Part shown: positions 4,995-39,983 of the stretch, in pieces
Layout of the letters: each line of letters starts with the position of its first letter
How positions within the stretch are numbered: position 1 is the stretch's first letter
Source: a virus
DNA length: 40,648 bases
Virus record (IMG/VR): IMGVR_UViG_3300045988_174062
Direction: 5' to 3' (one strand)
Program-made: the position numbers and the translations under genes
Notes under the pieces: generated by a model
Told to the model about the DNA's origin: nothing
The model's database searches: none
What the model saw: only the letters and a program-made list of their open reading frames with translations

Positions 4995-5020
4995 AGTTAT
5001 TATCCTTTCAAATTTAAGTA

Positions 5021-5050: not shown

Positions 5051-5056
5051 AATTAT

Positions 5057-5353: not shown

Positions 5354-5397
5354 ATTTAACCTCCCTTCTATTTATTAAATTAATTATACAATATTTG

Positions 5398-23755: not shown

Positions 23756-23758
23756 CTT

Positions 23759-24802: not shown

Positions 24803-24804
24803 GT

Positions 24805-25002: not shown

Positions 25003-25030
25003 ATTTCCCTCTCATATTTTGTTATTTATA

Positions 25031-25972
25031 TCAATTTATTTTTCGCATCATAACATGGATATAAGGCATCCCTGTCCATTTATTTCTTGTTGCTTTAAAT
25101 CCAACAACTTTATATCCAGGATTTAATTTTTCCATTTCTTTTTCAATTAAGTTATGATCACTTTCCATCTTGAATATTTTTCTCTTTGATACTTTTTTAG
25201 ATGTAGTTATAATAGGCTCTTTTAATCCTTGACTACATCCCCAACGTTTTTTTCCTTTTGGGTCTTTTGATAGGTAGTTAGCTAAGTCAGTTAAATGTTT
25301 TTCATCAGGATCTATTCGTCTTATATTATTTCTTCTTCCATACTTCCAGCAGTTTTCAACTTGATCCATTGATAATTCAGAACTCATAATCATATGTACA
25401 TGATATTTTCCTTTGCCTTCTTTTGAAATCTCAATTACATACATATACTTAATTTTCTTGTACTTTTTCTTATTTATTTTGTGCGATAACTTTTTTCCTT
25501 CTTGGTGTACTTGAAGTTTCATGTATTCATAATTAAGTTTGTTTATGTATGCTCTTACGTGCTTTTTAGCTTCTTCATAACTTTTAGGTCTATTATCATT
25601 TCTGTAGTTAAGAGTTAAATAATAATCACCTTTTCCAAAGTTAGCATTTACTTTTCTTATGAAGTTCTTAACTGCATTTTTATTATTGAGATTCTTTTGA
25701 GCCTTCTTAGTAGTTTTAACTCTAAATTCTTCAGGTATATCTTTTTTTAAGAATACTGGGTACATTTCAAGTTCTCTTATTGGTCCTGATGTTATTGTTT
25801 TTGTTTCATATATACAATTACTTCTTGCATCTAGTATTTGATCTATATTGTTTAGACTTACAACTTCACTATCTATAGTTACTTGATGCTCCATCATTGA
25901 ATCTATTAAGTTTTCAAAATCAACTTCTGTATATAGATTTTTCTTTCTCCTTTGACTTTTTTTAACTGACAT
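25031..25972 (-). CDS. HUH-type rolling-circle replication initiator (Rep)
   Basis: 313 aa. KYHVHMIM is an HUH motif (H-hydrophobic-H). It is followed about 40 aa later by a Tyr motif, LANYLSKDPKGKK. The N-terminus is basic. Confidence 0.55.
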   Translation of the reverse strand: MSVKKSQRRKKNLYTEVDFENLIDSMMEHQVTIDSEVVSLNNIDQILDARSNCIYETKTITSGPIRELEMYPVFLKKDIPEEFRVKTTKKAQKNLNNKNAVKNFIRKVNANFGKGDYYLTLNYRNDNRPKSYEEAKKHVRAYINKLNYEYMKLQVHQEGKKLSHKINKKKYKKIKYMYVIEISKEGKGKYHVHMIMSSELSMDQVENCWKYGRRNNIRRIDPDEKHLTDLANYLSKDPKGKKRWGCSQGLKEPIITTSKKVSKRKIFKMESDHNLIEKEMEKLNPGYKVVGFKATRNKWTGMPYIHVMMRKIN

Positions 25973-26114
25973 TCTAACTACCTCTTTTTATTATTTCTTA
26001 CTCAAACTTTAATACTTAGTACAAGTCCGTTAAAAGGCTCACCGAACCATTTAAAAGACTTGTATCTATTAAGTTTTTTGGGGTGTATTATTTTTAGTTA
26101 ATATCACACCTTTT

Positions 26115-26267
26115 TTAATTTTTATCTGTTATATATTCAGTGTCTTTTTCAATTTCCATTTCGTATAATGCTTCTAAACGACCTTTAAAATTTTCAAATT
26201 TTAACGGATTTATTTTTTCTAGGTAAGCCAACTTCCTAGAAAGAGATTCAACTTCTTCACTTGTCAT
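26115..26267 (-). CDS. First early-operon protein (Cro-position), 50 aa
   Basis: I prefer the ATG at 26267 (AGGAGGG RBS 6 nt upstream) over the track start at 26321. Product: MTSEEVESLSRKLAYLEKINPLKF... Confidence 0.45.
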   Translation of the reverse strand: MTSEEVESLSRKLAYLEKINPLKFENFKGRLEALYEMEIEKDTEYITDKN

Positions 26268-26409
26268 ATTATCCCTCCTATTTTTCATGTCTTTGACATA
26301 AATTATATATGTCTTTGTCATGTTTTGTCAATATTTTTCTTTTTTTGACATAATTTTTATTTTTATTATATTGCAATGACATATTTCTTGCTATATAATA
26401 TGTCATGAG
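26268..26409. promoter_or_regulatory. Divergent early/repressor promoter region with repeated ATGTC/GACAT operator-like half-sites
   Basis: Plus strand: TTGCAA (26371-26376), N17, TATAAT (26394-26399), flanked by the perfect 9-bp inverted repeat atgacatat (26375-26383) / atatgtcat (26397-26405). Minus strand: TTGACA (complement of 26326-26331), then about 17-18 nt, then TATAAT. The palindrome ATGTCtttGACAT lies at 26287-26299 and the related atgtctttgtcat at 26309-26321. Confidence 0.6.
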
Positions 26410-26763
26410 GTGATTATTTTGAACACTAGATTAAAAGAATTAAGAAATCATCTTGGGCTATCTCAAAAAGATTTTGGAAGTAAAATTTTTCTATCTCAAG
26501 ATCATATATCTTCACTAGAAAAAGGTAGAAGGAGTATTACAGATAGATCTATAAAAAATATTTGTAATGAGTTCAATGTCAATGAGGAATGGTTACGTTC
26601 TGGAAAAGGTAGTATGTTCCAAGATATAACAAAGGATATATCTGCTCCTGATCATATTAAAGAATTATTAAGAAAATTTAGTTTATTAAGTGAAGATGAT
26701 CAGAAAAAAATGAATATTATGTTAGATGCATTTATATCTGAAAGCAAAAAAGAGGAGAATTAA
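26410..26763 (+). CDS. XRE-family HTH repressor (CI-like)
   Basis: LKELRNHLGLSQKDFGSKIFLSQDHISSLEKGRRSITDRSIKNICNEFNV is a classic XRE HTH. The gene is divergent from the early lytic operon. Confidence 0.8.
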   Translation: MIILNTRLKELRNHLGLSQKDFGSKIFLSQDHISSLEKGRRSITDRSIKNICNEFNVNEEWLRSGKGSMFQDITKDISAPDHIKELLRKFSLLSEDDQKKMNIMLDAFISESKKEEN

Positions 26764-26780
26764 TTTTTCTCCTCTTTTTC
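26751..26780 (+). terminator. Rho-independent terminator of the repressor gene
   Basis: agaggagaa (26751-26759) / ttctcctct (26767-26775) followed by TTTT. The stop codon lies in the loop. Confidence 0.7.
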
Positions 26781-27112
26781 ATTTATTTTAGCATCCATAT
26801 ATCCTTTTAAATATTCAATTTTAGGTTTATTTATTTTATCTAAAAGTATTAATTTTTCTAAAAAAATATTAATCATTTCTGTTTTAACGTTTTCTATCAT
26901 AATTCCGTTCACTACCTCCAAATTTTATACTTTTAAGTATTTTTAGTAATAAATATAGTCACATAAAGAACATATGTTCTCGGCATAACTATACCATTTA
27001 ATGGAATTATTTTCAATATATAACTTCAAAAGTTTGTGAAACCAAAAAAGGCGTATCTACTCTTGTTTATAAAGAATAAATACGCCTTTTATTTTTCATT
27101 TTTATTTTTTAT

Positions 27113-27141
27113 TTGACAAATCCTTTTAAAGGTTTTATTAT
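27113..27141 (+). promoter_or_regulatory. Sigma-A-type promoter for the replication-gene leader
   Basis: TTGACA (27113-27118), N17, TATTAT (27136-27141). Confidence 0.5.
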
Positions 27142-27164
27142 TATCTTAAAATTAAACATAAAAA

Positions 27165-27253
27165 AAGCCTACACCTTGATGGACATCTCACCTTCCATCT
27201 TGGCGAACTTATGATATCCAACCATATCAAAAGCTACTGTAGACTTATTTTTT
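27165..27253. ncRNA. Structured leader / candidate countertranscript element upstream of the replication initiator
   Basis: Long-range stem aagcctaca (27165-27173) / tgtagactt (27238-27246) with inner small hairpins (gatat-ccaacc-atatc). An A-run precedes it and a T-run follows, so it looks terminator-like on both strands. A minus-strand promoter-like TTGAAG-N17-TAATAT lies at 27303-27275. Confidence 0.35.
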
Positions 27254-27340
27254 ACATATATAATTTATGTAATAATATTAACATATATACGTTAATACTT
27301 CAATACTTAAGTTTATTTTTGTATAAAAATTTGTCCTCTT

Positions 27341-27372
27341 AGCCTTGATATTTTGATATCAAGGCTTTTTTA
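27341..27372 (+). terminator. Strong intrinsic terminator / attenuator immediately upstream of the replication-gene RBS
   Basis: agccttgatat (27341-27351), loop tttg, atatcaaggct (27356-27366), then TTTTT. The GGAGGAG RBS and the ATG at 27393 follow within 25 nt. Confidence 0.7.
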
Positions 27373-27392
27373 ATACGGAGGAGAATGACAAA

Positions 27393-28391
27393 ATGAGTAA
27401 TAATAAACCAAGAAAACATAATTTAAAATTTACATTACAAGGATTTAATCAATTAGAAGCTATAAAATTAGGATTAAACAATGATGATCTAACTGTATTA
27501 AGATGGTTTATAGATTTTAAAAATACAGGAGAAATGGAAAAAAACTACATACCAAGTATAAATGACATGGGGCATTGGGTTAATTACTCTACGTTAGTAG
27601 ATAGTTTACCTATTTTATTAAAAGATGGAAATAAATATTTAGAAGAATACTTAGAACTTGAGAAAGCTTATTATAAACTAGATGAAGATTCATATAAAAA
27701 ACTTCGTAAAAAATACATGGAGAAGTATTTAAAGAAAGTACAAAGAATACTATCAGGTAACTTAAGCAAGGTATTAAAAAGAGATTTAACTAAATTAGGA
27801 GAAGAAAAAGGAACTAAAGTATATTTATATGTTGATGAAGAAGCATATAAGAAACTTATATCTAATACAAATATGAATGATTTTTTAAGAGATAATGGTG
27901 TCCAGTACACACAGGACAAAAGTGTCCAGTACACACAGGACAAAAGTGTCCAGTACACACAGGACAAAAGTGTCCAGTCAGATTCTTCTACTAATGATTC
28001 TTCTACTAATGATTCTTCTACTACACAGTCGGAACAAAATGTTCCTGTAGTGGAAACAAATAAAGAACTTATAGAATCAAAAACTCATTTACTTTTAGAT
28101 AGTAAAAATAAAATAGATAAAGTTGCTAAATGGAATAAAGATAGATTAGTAAAAGCTATAGATATATTTGTAGAGCAAGGTGGACAATACTTCTCTTTAT
28201 TAGAAAAGATATACAAAGATGATAAGAACTTTGCACCAAAAGAATTTAAAGTTACTAATAATCAAATGACACAATCTGAAGTTATTTATAAGCCAAATAG
28301 AGCACATAATGTAAATAATACATTTTTAAATTATACTCCAGAGGAGCTTGAAAAACTTCTTCAAGAAAGTCAAAAAAATAAGTTTAAATAA
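27393..28391 (+). CDS. Replication initiator / replisome-organiser-like protein with internal iterons
   Basis: 332 aa. The N-terminal winged-helix-like segment (LTVLRWFIDFKNTG...WVNYSTLVDSLPIL) resembles the plasmid RepA_N / phage replisome organiser / DnaD-type N-termini. The central part is encoded by tandem DNA repeats. The gene lies beside the partition genes. Confidence 0.5.
   Translation: MSNNKPRKHNLKFTLQGFNQLEAIKLGLNNDDLTVLRWFIDFKNTGEMEKNYIPSINDMGHWVNYSTLVDSLPILLKDGNKYLEEYLELEKAYYKLDEDSYKKLRKKYMEKYLKKVQRILSGNLSKVLKRDLTKLGEEKGTKVYLYVDEEAYKKLISNTNMNDFLRDNGVQYTQDKSVQYTQDKSVQYTQDKSVQSDSSTNDSSTNDSSTTQSEQNVPVVETNKELIESKTHLLLDSKNKIDKVAKWNKDRLVKAIDIFVEQGGQYFSLLEKIYKDDKNFAPKEFKVTNNQMTQSEVIYKPNRAHNVNNTFLNYTPEELEKLLQESQKNKFK
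27898..27980. repeat. 3.4 tandem copies of a 24-bp iteron (gtgtccagtacacacaggacaaaa)
   Basis: Perfect copies at 27898-27921, 27922-27945 and 27946-27969, plus a partial copy at 27970-27980. Each unit contains the imperfect palindrome TGTCCAGT..ACAGGACA. The repeats encode (S/G)VQYTQDK x3. Confidence 0.9.
27981..28023. repeat. 2.9 tandem copies of a 15-bp repeat (gattcttctactaat)
   Basis: Copies at 27981-27995 and 27996-28010, with a partial copy at 28011-28023. The repeats encode DSSTN x3. Confidence 0.9.
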
Positions 28392-28526
28392 AAACTTATG
28401 ATGAGACAAGCTTAAGGGAGAAAGAAATTCTTTCTTATTTGATGAAACTGAACCTTGGTAGATAGATAATATAGATAAATTAGTTAATAAATTAAAAAAC
28501 AATCCAATAAACAGGAGGTATAAATA

Positions 28527-28877
28527 ATGAATGAAAAATGGGCAAATAAAGCTAATGAGAATTTATATTCATACTATATGGAACATCCTCTTGAATTTAG
28601 AGAAAAACATGTAGCTATACAAACAATATTAGTTGATTATGCAGAAGAAAATAAGTTACTTTTGCATCCAGATTGGTTTGACTATCCAGAAAATATAATT
28701 AAATATACTAATATTGAACAAAATTTAAATACTAAAAATAAAAGAGAACGTAGTGAAGAAGCATATCATAATGCTGCCTTTGGAGCATGGCATGAATATG
28801 ATGATAGACAAAAAGAATATGTTTTAAATTACGCTAAAGAAAATGGATACTTTATACCATCTAATTGGATAAAGTAA
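28527..28877 (+). CDS. Hypothetical protein
   Basis: 116-aa ORF with a strong AGGAGG RBS. Confidence 0.6.
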   Translation: MNEKWANKANENLYSYYMEHPLEFREKHVAIQTILVDYAEENKLLLHPDWFDYPENIIKYTNIEQNLNTKNKRERSEEAYHNAAFGAWHEYDDRQKEYVLNYAKENGYFIPSNWIK

Positions 28878-28957
28878 TAAGTTGTATTGATAAATTTCAT
28901 AAAACTTATTTAAAAATTACTTAGACTTAAAAAACATACGTGATATATGGAGGGGTT

Positions 28958-29356
28958 ATGACTAAAAAAACAATGCTAGACTTTGAAGATTTAATTTTTG
29001 ATGTATATTTTGCAATTAATGGTGTATCTATACATGATCAAGAATTATTTGATGATATTGAATTAAGAGGGAATTCAAAACTAATATCATACTTGATAAA
29101 CAATAGATTTTATATATTAGTATTAAATGACTTTGATATTGTTATGGCTATAGTTTACAACCATGAAATTTACCATAATTTGATTGAAGAAATCGAAGCT
29201 GATGCAACTAATATTGATTTTTATGATGTAAGAAAAATTTTTACTGATACTAATGGAGTATATACACCAAGTTTACTTGATGTAAAAAGAATAATCACTA
29301 GATGCTACTATAAAAATGAATTAGATAATTTAAGTAATATCGTAAAAAATAGCTAA
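28958..29356 (+). CDS. Hypothetical protein
   Basis: I prefer the ATG at 28958 (GGAGGGG RBS) over the track's GTG at 28940. 132 aa. Confidence 0.55.
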   Translation: MTKKTMLDFEDLIFDVYFAINGVSIHDQELFDDIELRGNSKLISYLINNRFYILVLNDFDIVMAIVYNHEIYHNLIEEIEADATNIDFYDVRKIFTDTNGVYTPSLLDVKRIITRCYYKNELDNLSNIVKNS

Positions 29357-29670
29357 TGATAATACTATTTGAACCAATTCTATTATTATCTAAATAAAAT
29401 AATCATAAAGAGTATGCAATAAAAGATGATGAATAAAAACAATGTAAAAAAATAAAATTCGAAATTACTTCTTAGTAGAAAAAAGCACTTGGACAACAAA
29501 AGAGTAAGAGGAAATTATATAACATTCCTCTACTCTATTTTTTAAGTTAATAGTATAAAACATAGTACTATCAATATGTATATGATATAATAATAGAGGA
29601 ATTGAAATCTATAGAGTGGTGTTTCATTCAAGAACTTACCTACTTCTTTGCAGGAAGGAGGTGAGGAAGT

Positions 29671-29850
29671 ATGGAACAAAAGATAATTGTCGGTATTATA
29701 AGTGCTATTGGTGCAATATGTCTTGGTCTAATGACTAATTATATATCTGACAAATTAAAAAGCCACTCTATGCGAGAGAGTGGCTTAGAGATTAAAATTA
29801 AGTTAAAATTTTTTGAACTTAATTTTAAACTTAAAAATTCTAAAAAATAA
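29671..29850 (+). CDS. Type I toxin candidate 1 (59-aa membrane peptide with Lys-rich tail)
   Basis: My own translation: MEQKIIVGIISAIGAICLGLMTNYISDKLKSHSMRESGLEIKIKLKFFELNFKLKNSKK. A GGAAGGAGGTGAGG RBS is present. An extended -10 TGATATAAT lies at 29583-29591 and a downstream terminator at 29942-29974. Confidence 0.6.
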   Translation: MEQKIIVGIISAIGAICLGLMTNYISDKLKSHSMRESGLEIKIKLKFFELNFKLKNSKK

Positions 29851-29898
29851 TTTTTAGGAACATCACTCTACTGCTAAATAGATTTCAATTCCTTTTAT
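29752..29898 (-). ncRNA. Candidate antitoxin sRNA 1 (antisense to the 3' half of toxin 1 mRNA)
   Basis: A minus-strand extended -10 TGTTATAAT lies at 29913-29905. The hairpin agccactct/agagtggct (29761-29785) is followed on the minus strand by a T-run, so the terminator is embedded in the toxin ORF. The ends are approximate. Confidence 0.4.
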
Positions 29899-29941
29899 AT
29901 TTATATTATAACATAATCAAATATGTTTTAAACTAATTTTT

Positions 29942-29974
29942 GAGATATAGATTAATTTCTATATCTCTTTTTTT
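29942..29974 (+). terminator. Rho-independent terminator (toxin 1 mRNA)
   Basis: gagatatag(a) ... (t)ctatatctc followed by T7. Confidence 0.65.
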
Positions 29975-30134
29975 ACTATTTTGAATAAATTAAAATTATT
30001 ATTGATATATAAATTATTTCTTAGTAGAAAAAAGCACTTTGATAAAATAAGAATATGAAAAAATGATTAATAATAATGCAACAGTATATTAACTAAAATA
30101 AGTATAAAGTTAATATATTATTTATTTTTCAAAG

Positions 30135-30321
30135 TTAAAATTTTATAAAAAATTATAAAATTTTATAAAAATACGATTTGTATAAATTTTATAATTTTTT
30201 ACACTAATTTATAATTTTTTGCAAAATTTTATAAAAAATAATGAAATTAAATATTGCAAAATTTTATAAAATTTGGTAAAATTCAATTAAAGTTGAATAA
30301 GTTTTATAAAGTTTTGTAAAA
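30135..30321. repeat. Centromere-like array (parC candidate) of TTTTATAAAA palindromic decamers, overlapping the par promoter
   Basis: Perfect ttttataaaa at 30141, 30161, 30227 and 30262. There are at least 5 degenerate copies (30151, 30187, 30207, 30302, 30312). ttgcaaaattttataaaa is duplicated at 30219 and 30254. The promoter TTGCAA (30254-30259), N17, TAAAAT (30277-30282) lies inside the array. Confidence 0.6.
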
Positions 30322-30334
30322 GGAGGTGATAAAC

Positions 30335-30550
30335 TTGAGTAGGATTGTTTTAACTTTCAAAAATAACGATAAAGAAAAAGCAATAGAATCTTTTTTAGAT
30401 AGCAAAGTTTCTCCTACTGCTTATATAAAGGAGCTAGTATGGGAGGCTATGAATAACGGAACTATAACAATACCTGTTATATCAGAAGAGCAAAACCAAG
30501 AACAAGAATCCACTAAAAAAAGTAAACCTAAAGTTGGTGGATTTAGATAA
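30335..30550 (+). CDS. parR: ParR-like centromere-binding adaptor (ribbon-helix-helix-type N-terminus)
   Basis: I prefer the TTG at 30335 (AAGGAGG RBS 8 nt upstream). The track's GTG at 30326 sits inside the RBS. The product is about 71 aa: SRIVLTFKNNDKEKAIESFL... (beta strand then helices), with a basic tail. It lies directly upstream of parM. Confidence 0.5.
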   Translation: MSRIVLTFKNNDKEKAIESFLDSKVSPTAYIKELVWEAMNNGTITIPVISEEQNQEQESTKKSKPKVGGFR

Positions 30551-30593
30551 ATGTACATTTAAAATTTAATATTAGAACATTGGAGGAATGAGT

Positions 30594-31535
30594 ATGAAAT
30601 TTGTTAGCGCAGGAATAGACTTAGGAAATAGTATGCTAAAGGCTACTAAAGAATTAAATGGTAAAAAGGTTAATGTGAAAGTTCCAAATAGAGTTCAGTA
30701 TGAAAAATCAATTAACCCTAAAGCAAAAAAAGTTGAATTTAATGGACAAACAATATACATAGGAGTCGGAGAACTTAACAATAATGTTCAAAAACATTCA
30801 AGAAAACATCTGTTAGAGCAAACTTTTGTTATGTTACATGAATTATATCCAAATGAATCAGCTTTAAAAGTTGATTTGAGATTAGGTTTACCACCAGTTC
30901 AATATTTTAATGATGCTCATAAAAGTAATTTTGCAAATATGTTCCCTATAGGTAAGCAATTTGATTTTACTGTAAATGGAATAAATAAGAAGGTTACTTT
31001 TGTATCGTTAGAAATATTTGTAGAAGGATATTCTGCTTTTGTTTCAAATATAGAAAGCATTGGAGATAATAAACAAGATATACTTTCAATTGATGTAGGT
31101 GGAGGTACAACTGATATATGTAGCTTCTCATATGATTATGATGATGAAATGTATTATCCAAATGATACTTTAACTGTACCAAAAGGAGTTATAGATTACG
31201 GTATAGAGATAGCCAATCATTTTAATGAAGTTGAAAATGCAGATATATCAAGTAAATATATAGATAATTTACTTAAAAATAATATTGAAGTAATTGAATA
31301 TAAAGGTAATAAATATAATCTTGAAAATTATTTATCTTCAATAGAGCCAATAGTAAATGACACTACTAATAAGATAACTAATAAGTTCGGTGAACTTGAT
31401 AGATATATTGTAGTTGGAGTTGGTGGTGGTTATAAGACATATAACAGAATGATTAAAGATAGAATAGCAGCAGAGATAGAATTAGATGAATATGCTCAAT
31501 TTTTCGGCAATTCAGAAGGATATTTAGAGCAATAA
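30594..31535 (+). CDS. parM: ParM/StbA-family actin-like segregation ATPase
   Basis: GIDLGNSMLKA (phosphate-1) and LSIDVGGGTTDI (phosphate-2) are actin-fold motifs. About 313 aa. I prefer the ATG at 30594 on RBS spacing. Confidence 0.8.
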   Translation: MKFVSAGIDLGNSMLKATKELNGKKVNVKVPNRVQYEKSINPKAKKVEFNGQTIYIGVGELNNNVQKHSRKHLLEQTFVMLHELYPNESALKVDLRLGLPPVQYFNDAHKSNFANMFPIGKQFDFTVNGINKKVTFVSLEIFVEGYSAFVSNIESIGDNKQDILSIDVGGGTTDICSFSYDYDDEMYYPNDTLTVPKGVIDYGIEIANHFNEVENADISSKYIDNLLKNNIEVIEYKGNKYNLENYLSSIEPIVNDTTNKITNKFGELDRYIVVGVGGGYKTYNRMIKDRIAAEIELDEYAQFFGNSEGYLEQ

Positions 31536-31540
31536 AATAA

Positions 31541-31573
31541 AAGTCAGTAGGTATCACTCTACTCTACTGACTT
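31541..31573 (+). terminator. Hairpin after parM (no clear U-tract)
   Basis: aagtcagtag (31541-31550) pairs with ctactgactt (31564-31573). Confidence 0.35.
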
Positions 31574-31682
31574 AAGACAATATAATTACAATAAAAAAGA
31601 CACATCCAAAGTGGAATATGCCTTTACCCTCGCAAGTAATAGTATATACCACTTGGATGCAAAATTCAAGGAGGAAAATACA

Positions 31683-31871
31683 ATGATATTAAAATACATA
31701 AATACAATGGCAAGATTAGAAAAAAGAGAGGGTAAATTAGGAACTATGATAGGGATTTTATTATCAATAGTGATGTTATTAATCGGTATTATGATAGTTA
31801 TGTTTGGATTACATATAATGAGTAAAGCATCTATAAATTTACTTGAATATATAAATGATATATTTTATTAA
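31683..31871 (+). CDS. Small membrane protein (62 aa)
   Basis: An AAGGAGG RBS lies 8 nt upstream of the ATG at 31683. Hydrophobic core: MIGILLSIVMLLIGIMIVMFGLHIM. The track's longer start at 31611 lacks an RBS. Confidence 0.5.
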   Translation: MILKYINTMARLEKREGKLGTMIGILLSIVMLLIGIMIVMFGLHIMSKASINLLEYINDIFY

Positions 31872-31880
31872 GGAGTTTTT

Positions 31881-32024
31881 ATGATGGAGCAATTATATTT
31901 TGAGGAAGTATTAGATAATCTTTTTGTATCTAATACTTGTAGAAAATGCAAGAATAATTGTAAAGTATTATGTATATCTGAAGATGCAATTATATATTGT
32001 AGGAACTTTGAAATAATTTACTAG
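31881..32024 (+). CDS. Small Cys-rich protein (47 aa)
   Basis: My own translation: MMEQLYFEEVLDNLFVSNTCRKCKNNCKVLCISEDAIIYCRNFEIIY. An AAGGAG RBS is present and the terminator at 32032-32065 follows. Confidence 0.4.
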   Translation: MMEQLYFEEVLDNLFVSNTCRKCKNNCKVLCISEDAIIYCRNFEIIY

Positions 32025-32031
32025 ATAATAA

Positions 32032-32065
32032 AAAGGCATATGAGGTTAATCATATGCCTTTTTAT
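32032..32065 (+). terminator. Rho-independent terminator
   Basis: aaaggcatatga / tcatatgccttt with loop ggttaa, then a T-run. Confidence 0.75.
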
Positions 32066-32230
32066 TGTAAAAATTAATTGTAAAAAATGTCCCTTTTAAT
32101 ATATCATATATATGTTTTTTTGAAAACCTAAAAATCCGAGTAGAGAAAAACAACTTAACCAAAAGGATTAGATGTTTCTTGTATAGAAATAGTTTCTTAT
32201 AGAATTGAAAATATAAAAGGTGGTGTTTCA

Positions 32231-32539
32231 TTGCTAAAGAAACTAAAGAAAAATGATTATAATTGGACTGGAAAATACATTAAAGAATATAATCAAATGG
32301 TTTCATATTATGAGAAACAGTTAGAGGAAAAGAATAGGATCATCGACTCTTTAAGTATAGAAAATAAGAATTTAAAAAATAGCATAAAGTTTCAAGGGAA
32401 ACAGAAACAAATTTCAGATAAAGACATAAATAAAATAAGAAAATTAAAAAATGAAGGTAAGAGTTATAGTTACATATCGAGTGAAACGGGATGGAGCAAG
32501 GCAACTATAAGTAGAGTTATTAATAATAAAAATTATTAA
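32231..32539 (+). CDS. Coiled-coil protein with a resolvase-type C-terminal HTH only (no catalytic domain)
   Basis: 102 aa with a TTG start. The C-terminus KIRKLKNEGKSYSYISSETGWSKATISRVINNK looks like the HTH_7-type domain of serine recombinases. Confidence 0.55.
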   Translation: MLKKLKKNDYNWTGKYIKEYNQMVSYYEKQLEEKNRIIDSLSIENKNLKNSIKFQGKQKQISDKDINKIRKLKNEGKSYSYISSETGWSKATISRVINNKNY

Positions 32540-32625
32540 AAAAATAGTCGATAAAATAAACAAAATTTGTTTACAAAAACAACCAAAAATGGTATTATAA
32601 TATTAAAGTTGAGGAGGGTAAGACA

Positions 32626-32979
32626 ATGAAAGTAACTGAATTTGGAAAATTCTCAAGAAAATTACGAATTGAGAATGATGAATTACTTAGAGATATGGCT
32701 AATAAGCTAGGTGTTACAGCTTCTTATTTATCTGCTGTAGAAATAGGTAAAAGAAATATACCAAAAAAATGGGAAAATATTATTGTTAACGCTTATCAGC
32801 TTGATAATAGTAAAGCCTTGGAATTAAGAGAGTCAATAGAGTACTCTATAAAAGTAATAAATATAGAGGTAGAACAATTAAATAATGAAGATAAAAATTT
32901 AATATTTATGTTAGCTAGAAAGGTTAATAATCTTGATGAAAAAGATAAAAATGAATTAAGAGAAATTTTATTTAGGTAA
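32626..32979 (+). CDS. XRE-family HTH protein (ImmR-like partner of the metallopeptidase)
   Basis: FGKFSRKLRIENDELLRDMANKLGVTASYLSAVEIGKRNIP is an XRE HTH. A GAGGAGGG RBS is present. Confidence 0.75.
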   Translation: MKVTEFGKFSRKLRIENDELLRDMANKLGVTASYLSAVEIGKRNIPKKWENIIVNAYQLDNSKALELRESIEYSIKVINIEVEQLNNEDKNLIFMLARKVNNLDEKDKNELREILFR

Positions 32980-32992
32980 AGAGGTGATAGAT

Positions 32993-33538
32993 TTGTCCTA
33001 TAAAACCAGGCCAAGATCTATAAAAGAAATACGCAATAAAGCAGAGATAGTTAGATCAATTATCCAAATTACAACAAACACATCTGGTGATAGTATAGAT
33101 ATTTTAAGGTTTGTGGAAAATGAAATAAGAGATAAAATAGATGAAAATTTCAATTTTATAGTATGTACTGAAGATGAGATGAAATCTAACTATGGAACAA
33201 CTTATTTAAATAAAAATACTATATGTATACGTGAAGATGTATACTATAGAGCTTGTGATGGTAATAGTAGAGATTTATTTACTATAGCCCATGAGTTAGG
33301 ACATTTATTTCTTCATTCGAATCAAAATGTTGAGTTAGCTAGGTCATCATCAGACGTGAAATTATATGAAGATGCAGAATGGCAAGCTAATACATTTGCT
33401 GCAGAATTGCTTATGCCTGCTAAATTAATAACTGAATGTGATACTCATTTTACTTTGATGAATCGATTTGGAGTTTCATATGAAGCAGCAGATATAAGAT
33501 TGAAAAAATTAGGTATTTATAACACTCAGTGTTGTTGA
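32993..33538 (+). CDS. ImmA/IrrE-family zinc metallopeptidase (COG2856-like)
   Basis: The HEXXH motif TIAHELGHLFLH plus downstream EWQANTFAAELLMP. The start is ambiguous: TTG at 32993 is preferred on RBS spacing, against the track's GTG at 32984. Confidence 0.8.
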   Translation: MSYKTRPRSIKEIRNKAEIVRSIIQITTNTSGDSIDILRFVENEIRDKIDENFNFIVCTEDEMKSNYGTTYLNKNTICIREDVYYRACDGNSRDLFTIAHELGHLFLHSNQNVELARSSSDVKLYEDAEWQANTFAAELLMPAKLITECDTHFTLMNRFGVSYEAADIRLKKLGIYNTQCC

Positions 33539-33834: not shown

Positions 33835-33904
33835 GAAAATATATATTAAAATATAACTAAATATATACTGTTTATTTTTATATATTTTGTAGTATAATAT
33901 AAAT

Positions 33905-34036
33905 ATAAAAGGAACTTCAATCTATTTGCACTAGAGTGATGTTTCCAAAACTTTAATTTTTGGTAATTTTGAACTTGATTTTTATTTCAAGTTCCACGCC
34001 ACTCTTAGTTTTCCTAGAACTAGAGTGGCTTTTTAA
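33905..34036 (+). ncRNA. Candidate antitoxin sRNA 2
   Basis: Promoter ...ttttgtagTATAAT (33893-33898). The terminator gccactct (33998-34005) / agagtggc (34022-34029) plus T5 is embedded in the toxin 2 ORF. The ends are approximate. Confidence 0.4.
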
Positions 34037-34117
34037 TTTGTCGGATATGTAGTTAGTCAATAGACCAAGACATATTGTGCAAATAGCACCTATGACAATA
34101 TTTATCATTTGTTCCAT
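33953..34117 (-). CDS. Type I toxin candidate 2 (54 aa; paralog of toxin 1)
   Basis: My own translation: MEQMINIVIGAICTICLGLLTNYISDKLKSHSSSRKTKSGVELEIKIKFKITKN. A GGAAGGAGGTGAG RBS is present. The promoter TGATATAAT lies on the minus strand at 34207-34199. Confidence 0.6.
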   Translation of the reverse strand: MEQMINIVIGAICTICLGLLTNYISDKLKSHSSSRKTKSGVELEIKIKFKITKN

Positions 34118-34365
34118 ACTTCTCACCTCCTTCCGTTAAGAAGTAGGCTTTATATTTAGTATGGAAACACCACTCTATAAATTGAAATTCCTATATTTAT
34201 TATATCATATCCATATAAGTTTTTATATACTTCAATCATTTCTTTGTTTTTATTATATAAATAAAACAAAATTTCATAAATTAATAAATGAACAAAAAAC
34301 ATTAATAAATGTATATTTTGTTCATTTATTAATTTATGAACGAAATAAAATAATTAGAGCTATGC

Positions 34366-35269: not shown

Positions 35270-35501
35270 ACTTACACCTCCTTTCTTTCGTGAAAGTAGG
35301 TGTTTTTTCTTTTGTATAGAAATCATCACTCTTAGATTATAATTTCTCTAAAAATATTATAACATAAAACCATTTACTAAAATAAAATAAATTGTTAACA
35401 GTTTTACTAAACACTTTATTTTCATAAATTAATTATTGAATAAAAATAAATATAAATGATATAATATTTTCATAAGTTAATTTATGAAAATAGGTGATGA
35501 A

Positions 35502-36140
35502 ATGAAAATTTTTAAAGAAATATTAGATACACATACTAAGATATGTACTTGTAGAAAAGTGTATAAAATAAATGATGATATTGAAATTATAATTGACCAG
35601 AAGGACAATAAATTAGTTATGTGGGGAGTTAATCATAAAACAGATAGGTTTTTAAATTTATCTACAAAGAGATTTAAAATGCTTATGGATGGATTTAAGT
35701 CAGTAGCTAGTGATTTATATTCAAGCGGAAGTAAGAATCAAAATTACTATTACATAACTATAGGTAAATCTATTAATAATTCTAAGGCTACAGAAAATAA
35801 TGATAAAGTAGATATTGATTTATTGAAAGAAGAAATAAAAAGTTTGAAAGAAAAGTTATTGTTGCTAGATAGTGAAAATAATAAGTTAAAGGAAGATCTG
35901 GAAAGATATAAAAGAGAGTATTTATATTATTCTAATGAATATACAAATTTGAAAAAAGAAAATGAAAAAGGAAAATTAAATATTCATAATGCTAGAGGAG
36001 CAGGTAGAAAGGCTAAATTTACTGATTGTCAAGTTGATGAGATAAAAAGACTTAGGGAAAGTGGAAATACTATAAACGAAATAGCAAAAGTATTTAATTG
36101 TTCAGTTGGTTTAATTCATAAATTAATAAATGAAAAATAA
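35502..36140 (+). CDS. Coiled-coil protein with a resolvase-type C-terminal HTH (no recombinase catalytic domain)
   Basis: I prefer the ATG at 35502 (AGGTGA RBS). The C-terminus ARGAGRKAKFTDCQVDEIKRLRESGNTINEIAKVFNCSVGLIHKLINEK is HTH_7-like. The extended -10 TGATATAAT lies at 35457-35465. Confidence 0.6.
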   Translation: MKIFKEILDTHTKICTCRKVYKINDDIEIIIDQKDNKLVMWGVNHKTDRFLNLSTKRFKMLMDGFKSVASDLYSSGSKNQNYYYITIGKSINNSKATENNDKVDIDLLKEEIKSLKEKLLLLDSENNKLKEDLERYKREYLYYSNEYTNLKKENEKGKLNIHNARGAGRKAKFTDCQVDEIKRLRESGNTINEIAKVFNCSVGLIHKLINEK

Positions 36141-36350: not shown

Positions 36351-36445
36351 AAATACCTACTTTTATCAGGAGGTAATAATCTAATTATAGTTTATTTGAT
36401 TAATATGTATATGTATTATATAATTGTAAATAAATGGAGGTTATT

Positions 36446-36853
36446 ATGAAAAAAAAACATGTACTTACAATTAGTTTATTAGTAATTATTTTTATTATAG
36501 GAAATATAGTATATATTTCAAAATTTAGAGGTTTAAATATTTTAGATAGGGATAGTATAAGTATTATTAAAGAAATAAAATCACCTGATGGTAAGAATAA
36601 GGCAATTGTTTATTTAGATAGTGGCAGTGCAACAGTACCTAATAACATTAGAGTTGCGATTGTTAAAAATAATAAAAAAAATGCATATGAGTCTAATATC
36701 GTATACTTACAGAATAGATCAGATTTTATAAATGTAAAATGGAAAAGTTATAATACTTTATTAATTGAATATAAAGAAGATGGTGATTCTGACATTATAA
36801 TAAATAAAACTTTATATAAAAATATTAATATTGAATATAAAAAGCAAGGTTAA
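36446..36853 (+). CDS. N-terminally membrane-anchored protein (135 aa)
   Basis: MKKKHVLTISLLVIIFIIGNIVYI is a signal-anchor, followed by a beta-rich domain. A GGAGG RBS lies 5 nt before the ATG at 36446. The gene is convergent with the effector gene. Confidence 0.6.
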   Translation: MKKKHVLTISLLVIIFIIGNIVYISKFRGLNILDRDSISIIKEIKSPDGKNKAIVYLDSGSATVPNNIRVAIVKNNKKNAYESNIVYLQNRSDFINVKWKSYNTLLIEYKEDGDSDIIINKTLYKNINIEYKKQG

Positions 36854-36872
36854 TTAATAACCTTGCTTTTTA
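36838..36872. terminator. Bidirectional terminator shared by convergent genes
   Basis: aaagcaaggtta (36841-36852) / taaccttgcttt (36858-36869), with an A-run before and a T-run after. Confidence 0.7.
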
Positions 36873-36873
36873 T

Positions 36874-37818
36874 CTAAGAATGAACTCTTCTATAGAAATT
36901 CATTCCTATTTTAATACTTTCTTGATCTTTAGGGTCATCTCCATAAGGATAAGATCCATTCCATTTACCCCACTCAGGCTTATTTGTACCGGCTTGTGCT
37001 TGAGCATATCCAGCAGCCCTTTGTAGTAATTCATCTGTATATTTAAAACATTTACCAACATATCCATAAAGTATGTTGCCTGGAGAATCTCCTCTTACAA
37101 CTTTATTATCAAATATATAATTTGTTTTACTACTCCATCCTTGATTTTTTAAATCTAATTCTCCATTATTTCTAACTAAATTATAAAATACATATAATTG
37201 AGCCGGAGTAGAAAGTTTACTATATTGTTCTTTATATTTATGTTCATATTTTACAAAAAGAGATAATAATTTATCTGTAATATTTTTTAAATTTGATCCT
37301 TCTATAAGTTTTTTCCAAGTAGCAGGTCCTACCATTCCATCTACAGTTAATCCAGATGCTTGTTGGAATTTTTTTACTTCTCTTTGTGTAGCAGGACCAA
37401 AATATCCATCTGCAGAGTCTAAACTATACCAAAGAGATATAAGTTTCTTTTGAACAGATTTAACGTCTTCACCATACATTTGTGGACTTGTTAATTTTAG
37501 TACTCTTGTATATCCAGCTCCTGAACTAGAAGGTTTAGGTTTAGCAGTTGAGCTAAATAATTTATTCCAAGTAGCAGGACCAACTGATCCATCTACTGCT
37601 AAACCATTAACTCCTTGGAAATCTTTAACTGCAGCGACTCCTGTTGGACCATAGTATCCATCTACTGTTCCTGCACTATACTTTAATTCGTTTAATCTTC
37701 TTTGAACAGCTTTGACATCCTCACCATACATTTGTGGACTTGTTAATTTTAGTACTCTTGTATAAGATACACGAGCCTCGATATCAGTCTTTTCTAATAT
37801 TAATTCTTTTTCTTTCAT
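36874..37818 (-). CDS. Signal-less protein with two PG_binding_1-type repeats and an uncharacterised C-terminal effector-like domain
   Basis: 314 aa. YTRVLKLTSPQMYGEDVK...VDGY(Y/F)GP...V..FQ...GL.VDG.VGPATW.KL is repeated twice (peptidoglycan-binding domain 1 signature). The C-terminal ~135 aa carry GNILYGYVG and YPYGDDPKDQESIKIG. From memory these resemble a polymorphic-toxin C-terminal module (Ntox44-like); this is unverified. There is no N-terminal signal peptide. Confidence 0.6.
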   Translation of the reverse strand: MKEKELILEKTDIEARVSYTRVLKLTSPQMYGEDVKAVQRRLNELKYSAGTVDGYYGPTGVAAVKDFQGVNGLAVDGSVGPATWNKLFSSTAKPKPSSSGAGYTRVLKLTSPQMYGEDVKSVQKKLISLWYSLDSADGYFGPATQREVKKFQQASGLTVDGMVGPATWKKLIEGSNLKNITDKLLSLFVKYEHKYKEQYSKLSTPAQLYVFYNLVRNNGELDLKNQGWSSKTNYIFDNKVVRGDSPGNILYGYVGKCFKYTDELLQRAAGYAQAQAGTNKPEWGKWNGSYPYGDDPKDQESIKIGMNFYRRVHS

Positions 37819-37903
37819 AAATTAATTTCTCCTTTGAAAATTTTATTTATAAGCCAATATTATTTACGACTCACATTAAATACAAATGATTTTTTATGCA
37901 AAA

Positions 37904-37911
37904 TGTAAACC
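37904..37911 (-). promoter_or_regulatory. GGTTTACA box (-35-like) upstream of the effector gene
   Basis: Minus-strand sequence ...tcaaaGGTTTACAttttgcATAAAAAAtcatttgtatt..., about 86 nt upstream of the ATG at 37818. The same octamer plus ATAAAAAA occurs upstream of the sigma gene. Confidence 0.45.
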
Positions 37912-37933
37912 TTTGAGTAAAATAATTTTTAAA

Positions 37934-38455
37934 TTATTTAAGATATATTTTTTTTATTTTATTTAAAGCTCTTACATGGGTTTTATGAATAGCCTGTCTT
38001 GATACGCCAAGCTTTCGTCCTACTTCTGATTCAGATTTATTATTTAAATATATATTCTTGATTACATTTTGTTCTTTAATAGTTAAGCTTTTAATAATAT
38101 CATTAAGAATGATATTACTTAAATCTTCTGTATATCCAATATTAAATACATCTTCATTTAAATATAAAGTATTATTATTTTTATTTTGATGAATTTTATT
38201 TATATGTATATATTGATACTTAATAGACTTAGCTATATATGAAATTATATATCTATCACTTTTTAAATTAACTAATTCTATAGGAATCTTATCTAATAAA
38301 ATAAATAAAAATAATGTTAGCTCATTTTTCATATCCTCATAACAGCTATTTCTTTGTAACTTATTAAGTAATGGATCAAATTTAAGTAGTATATCTAAGA
38401 ATTTATTTTTATCTCCCTTTTTAAATTCTTCTACTAACAAATAAATATATCTCAT
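37934..38455 (-). CDS. Small sigma-70-family factor, TcdR/UviA/BotR/TetR-like (group 5-like)
   Basis: I prefer the ATG at 38455 (AAGGAG RBS); the track start at 38515 lacks one. 173 aa. The region-2-like part is FLDILLKFDPLLNKLQRNSCYEDMKNELTLFLFILLDKI. The region-4 HTH is LTIKEQNVIKNIYLNNKSESEVGRKLGVSRQAIHKTHVRALNKIKKIY. The size and layout match clostridial toxin/bacteriocin sigma factors as I recall them. Confidence 0.65.
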   Translation of the reverse strand: MRYIYLLVEEFKKGDKNKFLDILLKFDPLLNKLQRNSCYEDMKNELTLFLFILLDKIPIELVNLKSDRYIISYIAKSIKYQYIHINKIHQNKNNNTLYLNEDVFNIGYTEDLSNIILNDIIKSLTIKEQNVIKNIYLNNKSESEVGRKLGVSRQAIHKTHVRALNKIKKIYLK

Positions 38456-38498
38456 AAAAAACTCCTTTTCGATTTTAAAAATCAAAAAGGAGTTTTTT
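38456..38498 (-). promoter_or_regulatory. 20-bp-arm hairpin plus U6 abutting the sigma start codon; the 3' arm contains the RBS
   Basis: The plus-strand arm 38456-38475 (aaaaaactccttttcgattt) pairs with 38479-38498 (aaatcaaaaaggagtttttt), with 1 mismatch and a 3-nt loop. On the minus-strand RNA the second arm carries AAGGAG, followed by UUUUUU and then AUG. Confidence 0.6.
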
Positions 38499-38505
38499 AT
38501 TGTAT

Positions 38506-38513
38506 TGTAAACC
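38506..38513 (-). promoter_or_regulatory. GGTTTACA box (-35-like) upstream of the sigma gene
   Basis: Minus-strand sequence ...agatGGTTTACAatacaATAAAAAActcc... With 17-bp spacing, the predicted start site would fall near the hairpin loop (about 38476). Confidence 0.45.
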
Positions 38514-38588
38514 ATCTTTAGACATTTTTTTACATTTTTTTCCGAATAATCTCATATTTCTTCAATATCATAAAATTTAATAGCCTAA

Positions 38589-39299
38589 CTATATAAGCTC
38601 TATATAGTCTGCAGATACATAACATGGTTTATTATTATACTTATAATCATACGTAGAGAACCAATTATTTAAGCAGTAGTTGACTTCTAATACAGTACCT
38701 TTTGGTATTGTTTTAATTATTTTACTAGATGTACTTCTTTCATTTCTTATATTTAAATTTGCTGTTGTTCTAGCTTTTCTATTATAATCTCCATTTTTAT
38801 ATTTAATTGAAGAATTAGATGTAGGTGCTCCTTTTAATTCTTTTTCGATTAGCTTCTTAAATTCATTCATATTAGTTCTATGAGGACAGTTCTTATTAGC
38901 AAAATCTCTGTGAGCCTTAACTCTATTAATTCCCCAACCATATTTTCTAAGAAGTTCAGCGACTACTTTAGCTGCTCTTTTTTCAGCAGCAATAAACTTA
39001 GTTCCGCCATCTTTAGAATAACAAATTTCTATAGATATATGATTTCTATTACCTTGACCACTTCCATCTCCACAACTCCAAGAGTTTCTATCAAGTGGTA
39101 ATCCTTGTATAGCTTCTACATCATCAACTGCTATATGAAAACTTACTTTATTATTATTAGATTTCATATAAGAAATCTCATTTTTAGCACTAGCATTGTT
39201 ATATGTATTATGTATAGATATTCCAATTGGATTCATACTATATGGACATTTTATATTATACTTGCTACTTTTTACTAAATCTTGTTTTATTAAACTCAT
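38589..39299 (-). CDS. Endolysin: N-acetylmuramoyl-L-alanine amidase (Amidase_2/PGRP type) with a C-terminal SH3b-like domain
   Basis: GISIHNTYN...FHIAVDD...HRDF..KNCPHR are Zn-amidase motifs. The C-terminus ARTTANLNIRNERSTSSKIIKTIPKGTVLEV is SH3-like. It lies directly after the holin. Confidence 0.85.
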   Translation of the reverse strand: MSLIKQDLVKSSKYNIKCPYSMNPIGISIHNTYNNASAKNEISYMKSNNNKVSFHIAVDDVEAIQGLPLDRNSWSCGDGSGQGNRNHISIEICYSKDGGTKFIAAEKRAAKVVAELLRKYGWGINRVKAHRDFANKNCPHRTNMNEFKKLIEKELKGAPTSNSSIKYKNGDYNRKARTTANLNIRNERSTSSKIIKTIPKGTVLEVNYCLNNWFSTYDYKYNNKPCYVSADYIELI

Positions 39300-39300
39300 A

Positions 39301-39726
39301 TTAATTTACCTCGCTTTTATTATTATATTTTTTATTTCCTTGCTTAAGTTGAACTAATGCATCAACTAATTGCTGTGGAATAGGGAGACCTATAGATGCT
39401 GCATTCTCTAAAATACTAGCGCCTTCATTAGCTGTGTACCAAAAACAAACTAAGCTTCTAAATATAAAGCCATGTCCAATTAATCGATCTATTAGTACAG
39501 CTAATATCATTATGTAAAATATAGTTACTTTTTTATAAATACCTCTAAATCCATATTCACTGCTTAATTGTTTATAAAAATATGCTCTAGTTATTCCAGT
39601 AATATAATCAATAAACATTACGGTAACTAATGTCATTAAAGGTATATCCCATGCTCCAAACAGCCACACAAACACTGTTCCTAATAAAGATATGATATAG
39701 TTAATTTTTTCATTATAAATATTCAT
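39301..39726 (-). CDS. Holin (toxin-secretion / phage-lysis holin family, TcdE-type)
   Basis: 141 aa with three hydrophobic helices. DYITGI...YGFRGIYKKV..F..I..A...D...G...FR....F.Y.ANEG.SILEN is characteristic of this holin family. Confidence 0.8.
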   Translation of the reverse strand: MNIYNEKINYIISLLGTVFVWLFGAWDIPLMTLVTVMFIDYITGITRAYFYKQLSSEYGFRGIYKKVTIFYIMILAVLIDRLIGHGFIFRSLVCFWYTANEGASILENAASIGLPIPQQLVDALVQLKQGNKKYNNKSEVN

Positions 39727-39983
39727 ATAATCCTCCTCTTATCTCATAATTAAAAAATCAAATAATATACAAAAAGTAAACCTAATTTTGTATAAAAAAA
39801 GAACTCTTAAAGTTCCAATGTTATATTATTTATATCTGTAAAGTCTTCTGGGTATAGGGCATATGCAAGAGACTGAATATCTGCTCTTAAAACTGCCTGT
39901 AGCCCATCCTCTAATCTCTTATTTTTAGCTTCTAAAATGTTTCTTTCCTGCAATAAAAAAAGAACCTCTCCTGGTCCTATAAT

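Follow-up and report, generated by a model that had tools for sequence, protein, structure and literature searches.

A phage lysis module with a TcdR-family sigma factor and a candidate Ntox44 toxin–immunity pair

Introduction

Why should the lysis genes of a phage be accompanied by a sigma factor of the kind that serves clostridial toxin loci, and which product would that sigma factor control? This question is raised by IMG/VR record IMGVR_UViG_3300045988_174062, a 40.6 kb stretch of viral DNA, the whole of which is called the window here. A module close to one end of it encodes a holin, an amidase endolysin, a sigma-70 factor, a 314 amino acid (aa) effector and a convergent membrane-anchored protein. 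The toxin loci of C. difficile, P. sordellii, C. botulinum and C. tetani and the bacteriocin locus of plasmid pIP404 have one sigma factor family in common, and a phage origin has already been proposed for the pathogenicity locus (PaLoc) of C. difficile.

Our analysis was computational throughout; gene content, family memberships, promoter statistics, toxin–immunity co-occurrence and RNA folds were computed. The reading that we favour, with a rough probability of 0.68, is that the module constitutes a sigma-driven, lysis-released bacteriocin with its immunity protein, carried on a phage-plasmid. All five genes that an earlier note on this DNA had placed in the module were confirmed at these positions, together with a terminator:

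39301–39726, minus strand: holin of the Phage_holin_4_1 or 'toxin secretion-phage lysis' family (PF05105, 1.8e-38)
38589–39299, minus strand: endolysin, an N-acetylmuramoyl-L-alanine amidase (Amidase_2) with a C-terminal SH3_3 wall-binding domain
37934–38455, minus strand: TcdR-family (group 5) sigma-70 factor of the TcsR clade, 173 aa, SRQ at residues 152–154
36874–37818, minus strand: signal-less toxin (the effector), 314 aa, PG_binding_1 repeats at about 30–90 and 113–173, Ntox44 domain at about 176–314
36845–36865, both strands: bidirectional intrinsic terminator common to the effector and immunity genes, an 8-bp stem between an A-run and a T-run
36446–36853, plus strand: candidate immunity protein, DUF5412 (PF17428), with an N-terminal membrane anchor and an exported domain with a G(S/A)T(T/V) core

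A sigma factor of the toxin-locus family

Our study placed the sigma factor in the TcdR family, as had been suggested from its layout. Among plasmids, tblastn matched it best to a sigma gene of P. sordellii pCS1 that occupies the tcsR position, directly upstream of tcsH, and the two proteins share 48 % identity over their full length (pairwise E 3e-52). At 173 aa it is a small sigma factor, within the size range of this family (approximately 170–200 aa, with regions 2 and 4 only), and aligns with TcsR from end to end, and its open reading frame (ORF) starts at 38455 behind a good ribosome-binding site. The SRQ motif in region 4.2, which is a proposed marker of the TcdR-family group (PMC4031146), is present at residues 152–154 (GVSRQAIHK). 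Identity to UviA of pIP404 was 33 % (E 2e-17) and to the TcdR encoded beside tcdB on C. difficile pHSJD-312 it was 30 % (E 3e-15). As TcsR and this TcdR share only 33 % identity with each other, the phage protein was placed inside the TcsR clade, which also holds the sigma factor of Paraclostridium ghonii (47 % to TcsR). Pfam recognised region 4 alone (Sigma70_r4, 2.2e-8), and the match to NCBIfam TIGR02937 was marginal (43.6 bits against a cut-off of 42.9). The BotR model TIGR03209 was matched weakly over its full length, and the score of 28.8 bits is so far under the cut-off of 138 that the protein is not a BotR equivalog.

A search of 5.8 billion proteins returned only 18 homologues, and tblastn of the sigma protein against the phage collection gave no match. 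In the neighbourhoods of several homologues we found a holin (Phage_holin_4_1 or BhlA/UviB), an Amidase_3 protein and a 730-aa PG_binding_1/Rv2525c-like protein, and others lie downstream of a BhlA/UviB holin gene. Relatives of this sigma factor are seen to adjoin toxin, holin, amidase and peptidoglycan-binding effector genes, which supports the reading of the earlier note.

Two of these loci deserve separate mention (loci fetched for comparison bear numbers with L). On a P. ghonii contig (L009, 1508–8718), a 53 %-identical homologue lies between split genes resembling those for botulinum neurotoxin (BoNT), namely a 395-aa Peptidase_M27 piece and an 846-aa piece with Toxin_trans and Toxin_R_bind_N, and a gene for a three-domain Cry-type toxin. 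L133 carries two paralogous sigma genes of the family (2368–2850 and 5010–5510), the second of which is downstream of a BhlA/UviB holin gene.

The holin was identified by TIGR01593, 'toxin secretion/phage lysis holin', at 107.6 bits (cut-off 40.2). Its identity to TcsE and TcdE is only 21–23 %, so that the close tie to toxin loci lies in the sigma factor and not in the whole cassette. The endolysin is 33 % identical to the amidase adjoining tcdE on pHSJD-312. Holin and endolysin genes are adjacent and, in assemblies of the same phage from other samples, stand downstream of tail genes, which is the arrangement of a phage lysis cassette.

Promoters shared by three genes

The sigma and effector genes had been reported to be preceded by one octamer, GGTTTACA, followed by a second element, ATAAAAAA. 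The octamer was found exactly twice in the window, at 38513–38506 (sigma gene) and 37911–37904 (effector gene). On its own it is not significant, since at least two matches occurred in 23 of 100 shuffles; for the composite of GGTTTACA and ATAAAAAA, 0 matches are expected in the window. When every GTTTAC(A/T) in the window and in related loci was listed, a T-rich hexamer (TTTGTA, TTTTTG) situated exactly 17 nt 3' of the TTTACA/T box emerged as the conserved second element. ATAAAAAA does not have this role and was ruled out as a -10 box, because it sits in the promoter spacer and, at the sigma gene, is part of a hairpin arm. The full pattern GGTTTAC(A/T)-N17-TTTKTD was matched three times in the window (0.01 expected), and 3/3 sites stand before the holin, sigma and effector genes:

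39752–39782, minus strand: TcdR-family-type promoter of the holin gene, GGTTTACT-N17-TTTTTT, outside the span of the earlier note
38483–38513, minus strand: TcdR-family-type promoter of the sigma gene, GGTTTACA-N17-TTTTTG
37881–37911, minus strand: TcdR-family-type promoter of the effector gene, GGTTTACA-N17-TTTGTA

TTTACA-type promoters thus stand before both the sigma and the effector genes, as claimed; the idea of one dedicated target, however, is not borne out, as such a promoter also precedes the holin. In TcdR-family promoters the published -35 element reads TTTACA, and the -10 element differs from one family member to another. The promoter of the sigma gene implies that the factor may be autoregulated.

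The motif was also found before tcsR, tcsH and bcn and before sigma, holin or effector genes of L005 (a related phage), L009, L010, L012 and L138. The first 14 nt of the effector promoter have one mismatch to the tcsH promoter, and this promoter is kept in L005 and L138. Equivalent boxes precede the holin genes of L005, L010 and L138, and like boxes precede tcsR and the sigma homologues of L009, L010, L012, L133, L135 and L138. L138 has the motif before its sigma, holin and effector genes alike, and differs from the window in gene order and in the C-terminus of its effector. The hexamer at tcsH, at bcn and at the Cry-type toxin gene of P. ghonii is TTTTTA, the last of these being preceded by GGTTTACA-N17-TTTTTA.

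It could be argued that the three GGTTTAC boxes are ordinary housekeeping-type promoters and that the sigma factor regulates something else or is a passenger. TTTACA is one mismatch from TTGACA and so resembles a sigma-A -35 box, GGTTTACA by itself is not enriched, and L005 has the boxes without a sigma gene nearby. Nevertheless, the second hexamer is TTTKTD and not TATAAT, and nowhere else in the phage does the complete motif occur. Furthermore, across 137 fetched loci the full pattern was restricted to those with a family sigma gene or its known targets, such as tcsH and bcn, with one stray match (L124) among approximately 100 unrelated loci. We therefore regard a housekeeping origin of the boxes as very improbable.

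In a Peptostreptococcaceae genome (L139, 1–5429), three neighbouring PG_binding_1 proteins carry NlpC/P60, GH24 and M23 domains, and those with GH24 and M23 have the two-repeat N-terminus of the effector type, their genes each lying downstream of TGTTTACA-N17-TTTKTA. These boxes before wall-active genes suggest that the sigma family may govern a wider set of wall-active proteins.

A wall-binding toxin and its candidate immunity partner

The effector had been described as a protein with two peptidoglycan-binding repeats and without a signal peptide, and our data agree on both points: PG_binding_1 was matched twice, and there is no hydrophobic N-terminus (top Kyte-Doolittle mean 0.11, over 15 residues in the first 40). 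Its C-terminal domain, which had been left unassigned, is Ntox44 (PF15607; 3.5e-16, 59.9 bits against a cut-off of 24), with residues 211–310 covering model positions 2–103 of 104. The motifs published for this domain are DxK, GNxxxG and DxxxD, and only motifs and no immunity family are listed there (Zhang et al. 2012, PMC3482391). All three are present in the effector (DLK at 222, GNILYG at 247 and DDPKD at 294), and the residues are invariant in 21 homologues.

Comparison of domain architectures revealed that the two parts of the effector each occur with other partners. The N-terminal repeats are common to proteins with M23, GH24 or unknown C-termini, at identities of up to 73 %; P0007 is 73 % identical over its N-terminal 56 % and divergent thereafter, P0031 carries M23 and P0032 carries GH24. 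The effectors of L010, L135 and L136 have Rv2525c-like domains. Elsewhere in clostridia, Ntox44 is found behind Amidase_3, behind an Rv2525c-like glycoside-hydrolase-like domain or behind pieces of BCN5, and in relatives from C. folliculivorans and C. algidicarnis it takes the place of the BCN5 C-terminus. A 45 %-identical homologue of the effector lies on p6CSt, a 55-kb plasmid-prophage of C. botulinum C. This swapping of targeting part and warhead among proteins is the signature of a polymorphic toxin, in which a conserved N-terminus is joined to alternative C-terminal toxin domains. The domains found N-terminally in the effector are the PG_binding_1 repeats; a dedicated secretion or trafficking domain (PAAR, Rhs, LXG, WXG or a signal peptide) was not found in it.

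AlphaFold confidence was 86.9 for the whole effector and 93.6 (pLDDT) for the Ntox44 domain alone, which was modelled as mainly helical with one short beta-hairpin, where an all-alpha fold would be expected of the family. Fold comparison of the full-length model returned PG_binding domains alone, as did a profile search of PDB sequences. With the Ntox44-only model, the best PDB match had an E of 0.43 with a TM of <0.3 and the best viral match an E of 0.04. The identities weighed for Ntox44 were a nuclease, a lipid II phosphatase like TelC, and a lysozyme or transglycosylase; none had the support of a fold match. Several prenyl-diphosphate synthases appeared in the insignificant tail of the matches and the domain has a DDxxD-like GDDPxD motif, which is recorded here as an idea only.

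Two further proteins were compared with the effector. BCN5, rebuilt from pIP404, consists of Peptidase_M14 and SH3_3 and has no similarity to it, so that homology was rejected. Closticin 574 is a bacteriocin with a 309-aa precursor; it was dismissed as a relative, as its fragment Pom-1 matched 0/144 fetched proteins and no ORF of any locus.

The convergent gene encodes a membrane-anchored protein, as the earlier note had stated, with one N-terminal hydrophobic segment (Kyte-Doolittle mean 2.7 over 19 residues). Its sole match is DUF5412, at 44.8 bits against a cut-off of 25 (43.1 in L005, 31.1 in L001 and 25.5 in L027). The proposed analogy to TcdC was rejected on the strength of this match and of co-occurrence with Ntox44, and the protein is instead a candidate immunity protein. 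DUF5412 adjoins the effector in the window, L001, L005 and L020; the two genes are convergent in this phage and in its 82 %-identical relative L005, and in C. botulinum (L001) they are on the same strand, 16 bp apart, with the immunity gene downstream. The bidirectional terminator claimed for the convergent pair is real, its stem having a z of -2.6 on the plus strand and -3.0 on the minus strand. Upstream of the immunity gene lies one further element:

36396–36424, plus strand: TTGATT-17-TATAAT, a housekeeping-type promoter serving the immunity gene, with a GGAGG ribosome-binding site after it; a consensus match only, of a type frequent in the AT-rich DNA of this phage

The association was quantified in a survey of 107 Ntox44 loci (L026–L132) from genomes and viral contigs, of which 106 were evaluable, using a hidden Markov model (HMM) seeded with three clostridial proteins and iterated three times. 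A DUF5412-like ORF directly follows the Ntox44 gene in 102/106 loci (100 on the same strand and 2 convergent), spanning Firmicutes, Proteobacteria, Acidobacteria, Spirochaetes and Bacteroidota. Acidobacteria, Treponema and other Clostridia were hit in round one, before any iteration, and hhalign linked the Firmicutes and enterobacterial members with a probability of 84.5 % (E 6.9e-6). A signal-anchor or lipoprotein signal and a G-A-T-T/V core were present in 25/25 representatives read. Taken together, these data make the DUF5412-like family the candidate immunity family of Ntox44, with immunity as its predicted function. Export of the partners makes a site of action beyond the cytoplasm, at the cell envelope, the most likely one for Ntox44 and argues against an RNase. 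One of the four loci without the usual partner is L028 of C. tyrobutyricum (70–1858), where the Ntox44 protein also has a glycoside-hydrolase-like domain and what comes next is not DUF5412 but a convergent ORF for a multi-pass membrane protein.

The survey bears upon two other explanations of the effector. According to the first, it would be an accessory second endolysin or exolysin with which the phage lyses its own host; the sigma factor would simply time lysis, and the DUF5412 gene would be a moron unconnected with the effector. PG_binding_1 repeats are indeed typical of endolysins, the same N-terminus is attached to true hydrolase domains (NlpC/P60, GH24 and M23) in L139, Ntox44 is fused elsewhere to Amidase_3 or Rv2525c-type domains, and a promoter of like type stands before the holin. 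[quoted passage not shown] We consider a second endolysin unlikely.

The other explanation takes Ntox44 to be an RNase and the effector to be colicin-like, crossing the target membrane with the PG-binding repeats as its receptor-binding part. It draws on a Pfam-derived label, 'predicted RNase', which is repeated in several papers; primary biochemical evidence for this label was not found in the literature searched, and Zhang et al. provide motifs only. The candidate immunity proteins read all have a membrane anchor or lipobox and place their domain outside, Ntox44 is fused to wall-binding or wall-cleaving domains, and neither structure nor profile comparisons found a nuclease fold. An RNase is accordingly a quite improbable identity for this domain.

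A hairpin over the start of the sigma gene

The leader of the sigma gene contains a near-perfect palindrome, and hairpins of the same layout recur in the family:

38454–38500, minus strand: 22-bp stem at the sigma gene, dG -26.1 kcal/mol, z -6.7
L009 5930–6006, L010 1855–1931, L012 6011–6087 and L133 4930–5006: family hairpins
L135 907–983, L016 6921–6997 and L019 7230–7306: further family hairpins

None of 200 shuffles folded as well as the phage leader. The 5' arm of the hairpin spans the end of the spacer and the -10 element of the sigma promoter, and its 3' arm takes in the ribosome-binding site plus the first two bases (AU) of the start codon. If transcription began approximately 7 nt past the -10 element, the RNA would start in the loop without the 5' arm, and read-through from the amidase gene would hold both arms. 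Hairpins with this layout and differing arm sequences were found in L009, L010, L012, L133 and L135, at a C. tetani plasmid gene and at uviA of pIP404; the hairpin is weak or absent at tcsR and in L136, and none like it was seen at the holin or effector promoters of the window. We propose that the sigma factor may be translated solely from self-initiated transcripts. The recurrence of such hairpins over ribosome-binding sites in the sigma family offers a possible explanation of bimodal toxin expression.

Working model

In the sequence of events that we envisage, recognition of the promoters by the sigma factor and the killing of neighbours after lysis are inferred from what is established for TcdR-family factors and for the loci of pIP404 and the PaLoc; immunity, the envelope target and the behaviour of the switch are proposals as well. 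The TcsR-clade sigma factor would recognise three GGTTTAC(A/T)-N17-TTT(T/G)T(A/G/T) promoters, serving the holin–endolysin pair, its own gene and the effector, and its action on its own promoter would constitute positive feedback. On transcripts from upstream starts, the 22-bp hairpin would hide the ribosome-binding site of the sigma gene, whereas transcripts from the self-promoter would start in the hairpin loop and stay translatable, giving a sharper on/off switch. Because it has no export signal, the effector would pile up in the cytoplasm and be released once holin and amidase open the cell. Outside, its two peptidoglycan-binding repeats would dock it on the walls of neighbouring Gram-positive cells, where Ntox44 may then attack an extracytoplasmic target such as the wall, a lipid-linked precursor or the membrane surface. 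The membrane-anchored DUF5412 protein would shield phage-carrying cells and, having its own housekeeping-type promoter, can be made without the sigma factor.

A phage-borne, holin-released bacteriocin was among the possibilities that the earlier note had raised. A lysis- or holin-released bacteriocin fits the absence of a signal peptide, the polymorphic-toxin domain Ntox44 and the conserved DUF5412 immunity partner.

Several observations weigh against this reading. L005 keeps both promoters and a sigma gene was not found within its 12.9 kb, so that the sigma factor may act in trans or be dispensable, and nothing was identified that first switches the sigma loop on. The late operon also ends with the holin and endolysin genes, and from the tail genes to the holin a terminator was not called by the scan tool; ordinary late transcription may suffice for lysis. 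The C. botulinum homologue lacks a TcdR-type promoter, and the literature labels Ntox44 a predicted RNase. The Pfam DUF5412 model catches the clostridial members and few others, and not the enterobacterial ones, and the wider link comes from our own iterated HMM and one moderate hhalign result. Finally, all of the support is computational.

A bolder combination of these ideas holds that phages of Peptostreptococcaceae carry the ancestral toxin-locus circuit with a bistable, hairpin-gated sigma factor, the bistable switch committing a few cells to lysis by holin and endolysin; that Ntox44 is an envelope-targeting enzyme of new fold, mislabelled as an RNase; and that DUF5412-like proteins are its universal immunity family across Gram-positive and Gram-negative bacteria. 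We put this joint proposal forward tentatively, with the odds against it.

The bacteriocin and immunity module that we favour is of interest in several respects. The sigma factor is nearer to TcsR than TcdR is, and it sits inside a lysis cassette that looks to be in working order. As a tractable model in a non-pathogen, the module could show how loci of this kind are turned on and by what route signal-less toxins reach the outside. Furthermore, the widespread Ntox44 domain gains a candidate immunity family and a predicted extracytoplasmic site, both of which differ from current annotation.

Concerning control of lysis, a GAAC-N4-GTTC box for SOS (LexA) regulation was not seen by eye, the only such sequence being a GAAC-N7-GTTC hairpin at 39790–39806. 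The related phage L005 carries, upstream of its tail and holin genes (36–2848), an agr-like quorum-sensing set of AgrB, a gene for a 48-aa peptide, a histidine kinase and a LytTR regulator.

Relation to known systems

The design of the module is known from the UviA-UviB-BCN5 system and the PaLoc, and it is the parts and their setting that differ. In the literature searched, we found no described counterpart for such a module inside an intact phage lysis cassette with its holin under a family promoter.

The match to the pIP404 uviA-uviB-bcn locus (reviewed in PMC9527704) that had been suggested holds for the shared design and not for the parts. Both have a TcdR-family sigma factor, a holin, an amidase and a signal-less bacteriocin; bcn and the amidase gene of pIP404 lie behind GTTTACA-N17-TTTTTA, and the ribosome-binding site of uviA is under a hairpin, like that of the phage sigma gene. 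However, the phage holin is of the Phage_holin_4_1 type (PF05105) and that of pIP404 is BhlA/UviB, and the predicted toxin is unrelated to BCN5, in which a hydrophobic tail follows Peptidase_M14 and SH3_3. The phage module also resides in the lysis cassette of what appears to be a complete phage-plasmid and not on a small plasmid, and an immunity candidate has been identified.

Likewise, the resemblance to the PaLoc extends to the sigma factor, the signal-less product, the holin family and the amidase, and fails for TcdC, the large toxin and a close holin. The large clostridial toxin loci compared were tcsR-tcsH-tcsE-tcsL of P. sordellii pCS1, whose TcsR is the closest match to the sigma factor, whose tcsH promoter resembles the effector promoter and whose holin TcsE is of the same family as the phage holin and has its own TTTACA box, and the C. 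difficile mono-toxin PaLoc tcdR-tcdB-tcdE-cwlH (PMC4597214). On pHSJD-312 the amidase is intact, as in the phage module, and the product of the toxin locus also has no signal peptide. These loci make a glucosylating cytotoxin, whereas the phage product is a 314-aa PG_binding and Ntox44 protein, predicted to be antibacterial. There is no TcdC in the phage module, where the convergent gene is the immunity candidate and the holin and lysin are still phage genes.

The PAAR-Ntox44 T6SS effectors of Yersinia and Klebsiella (PMC3482391) have the same domain and motifs, swappable C-termini and a DUF5412-like neighbour as putative immunity gene. In contrast to such polymorphic systems, the phage effector has no PAAR, Rhs or LXG adaptor and would use wall-binding repeats and delivery by lysis or holin instead; its immunity gene is convergent rather than downstream, and control by a dedicated sigma factor is predicted. 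A toxin with the same architecture is that of p6CSt from C. botulinum group III (PMC3098183), which was named 'bacteriocin' in 2011 by annotation only. It is followed by DUF5412 on a phage-like plasmid, as in the module, but toxin and immunity gene share a strand there, and neither a sigma gene nor a holin nor a TcdR-type promoter adjoins the toxin gene.

Genome context

The phage genome that makes up the window is circularly permuted. Other metagenome assemblies of this phage show the order large tail protein, holin, amidase, sigma gene, effector and convergent gene, and the contigs that carry it come from human gut samples. Plasmid-type maintenance genes occupy 22572–33538:

22572–23621: 37-kDa nucleoid-associated protein
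25031–25972: replication initiator
30588–31535: ParM/actin-like protein
32984–33538: ImmA/IrrE peptidase

The ParM-like partition protein and the replication initiator, together with zero integrase matches among the ORFs scanned in the window, give the element the look of a phage-plasmid. It is probably a phage-plasmid of approximately 40 kb with the module at the end of its late region, and its host probably belongs to the Peptostreptococcaceae. The terminase is at most 46 % identical to any entry of the phage collection, and base composition and tRNAs gave no sign that the module is of foreign origin.

The phage and plasmid collections held no near-identical DNA, apart from one stretch of 317 bp (window positions approximately 33893–34209) that is 87.5 % identical to a 42-kb plasmid of C. 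difficile, where it encodes a hypothetical protein. Adjoining the immunity gene, an ORF at 35484–36140 (plus strand) encodes a coiled-coil region followed by only the HTH_7 DNA-binding end of a resolvase, and in C. botulinum (L001, 5113–10468) three resolvase genes flank the toxin–immunity pair. The resolvase remnant and these three genes hint that the pair moves as a cassette.

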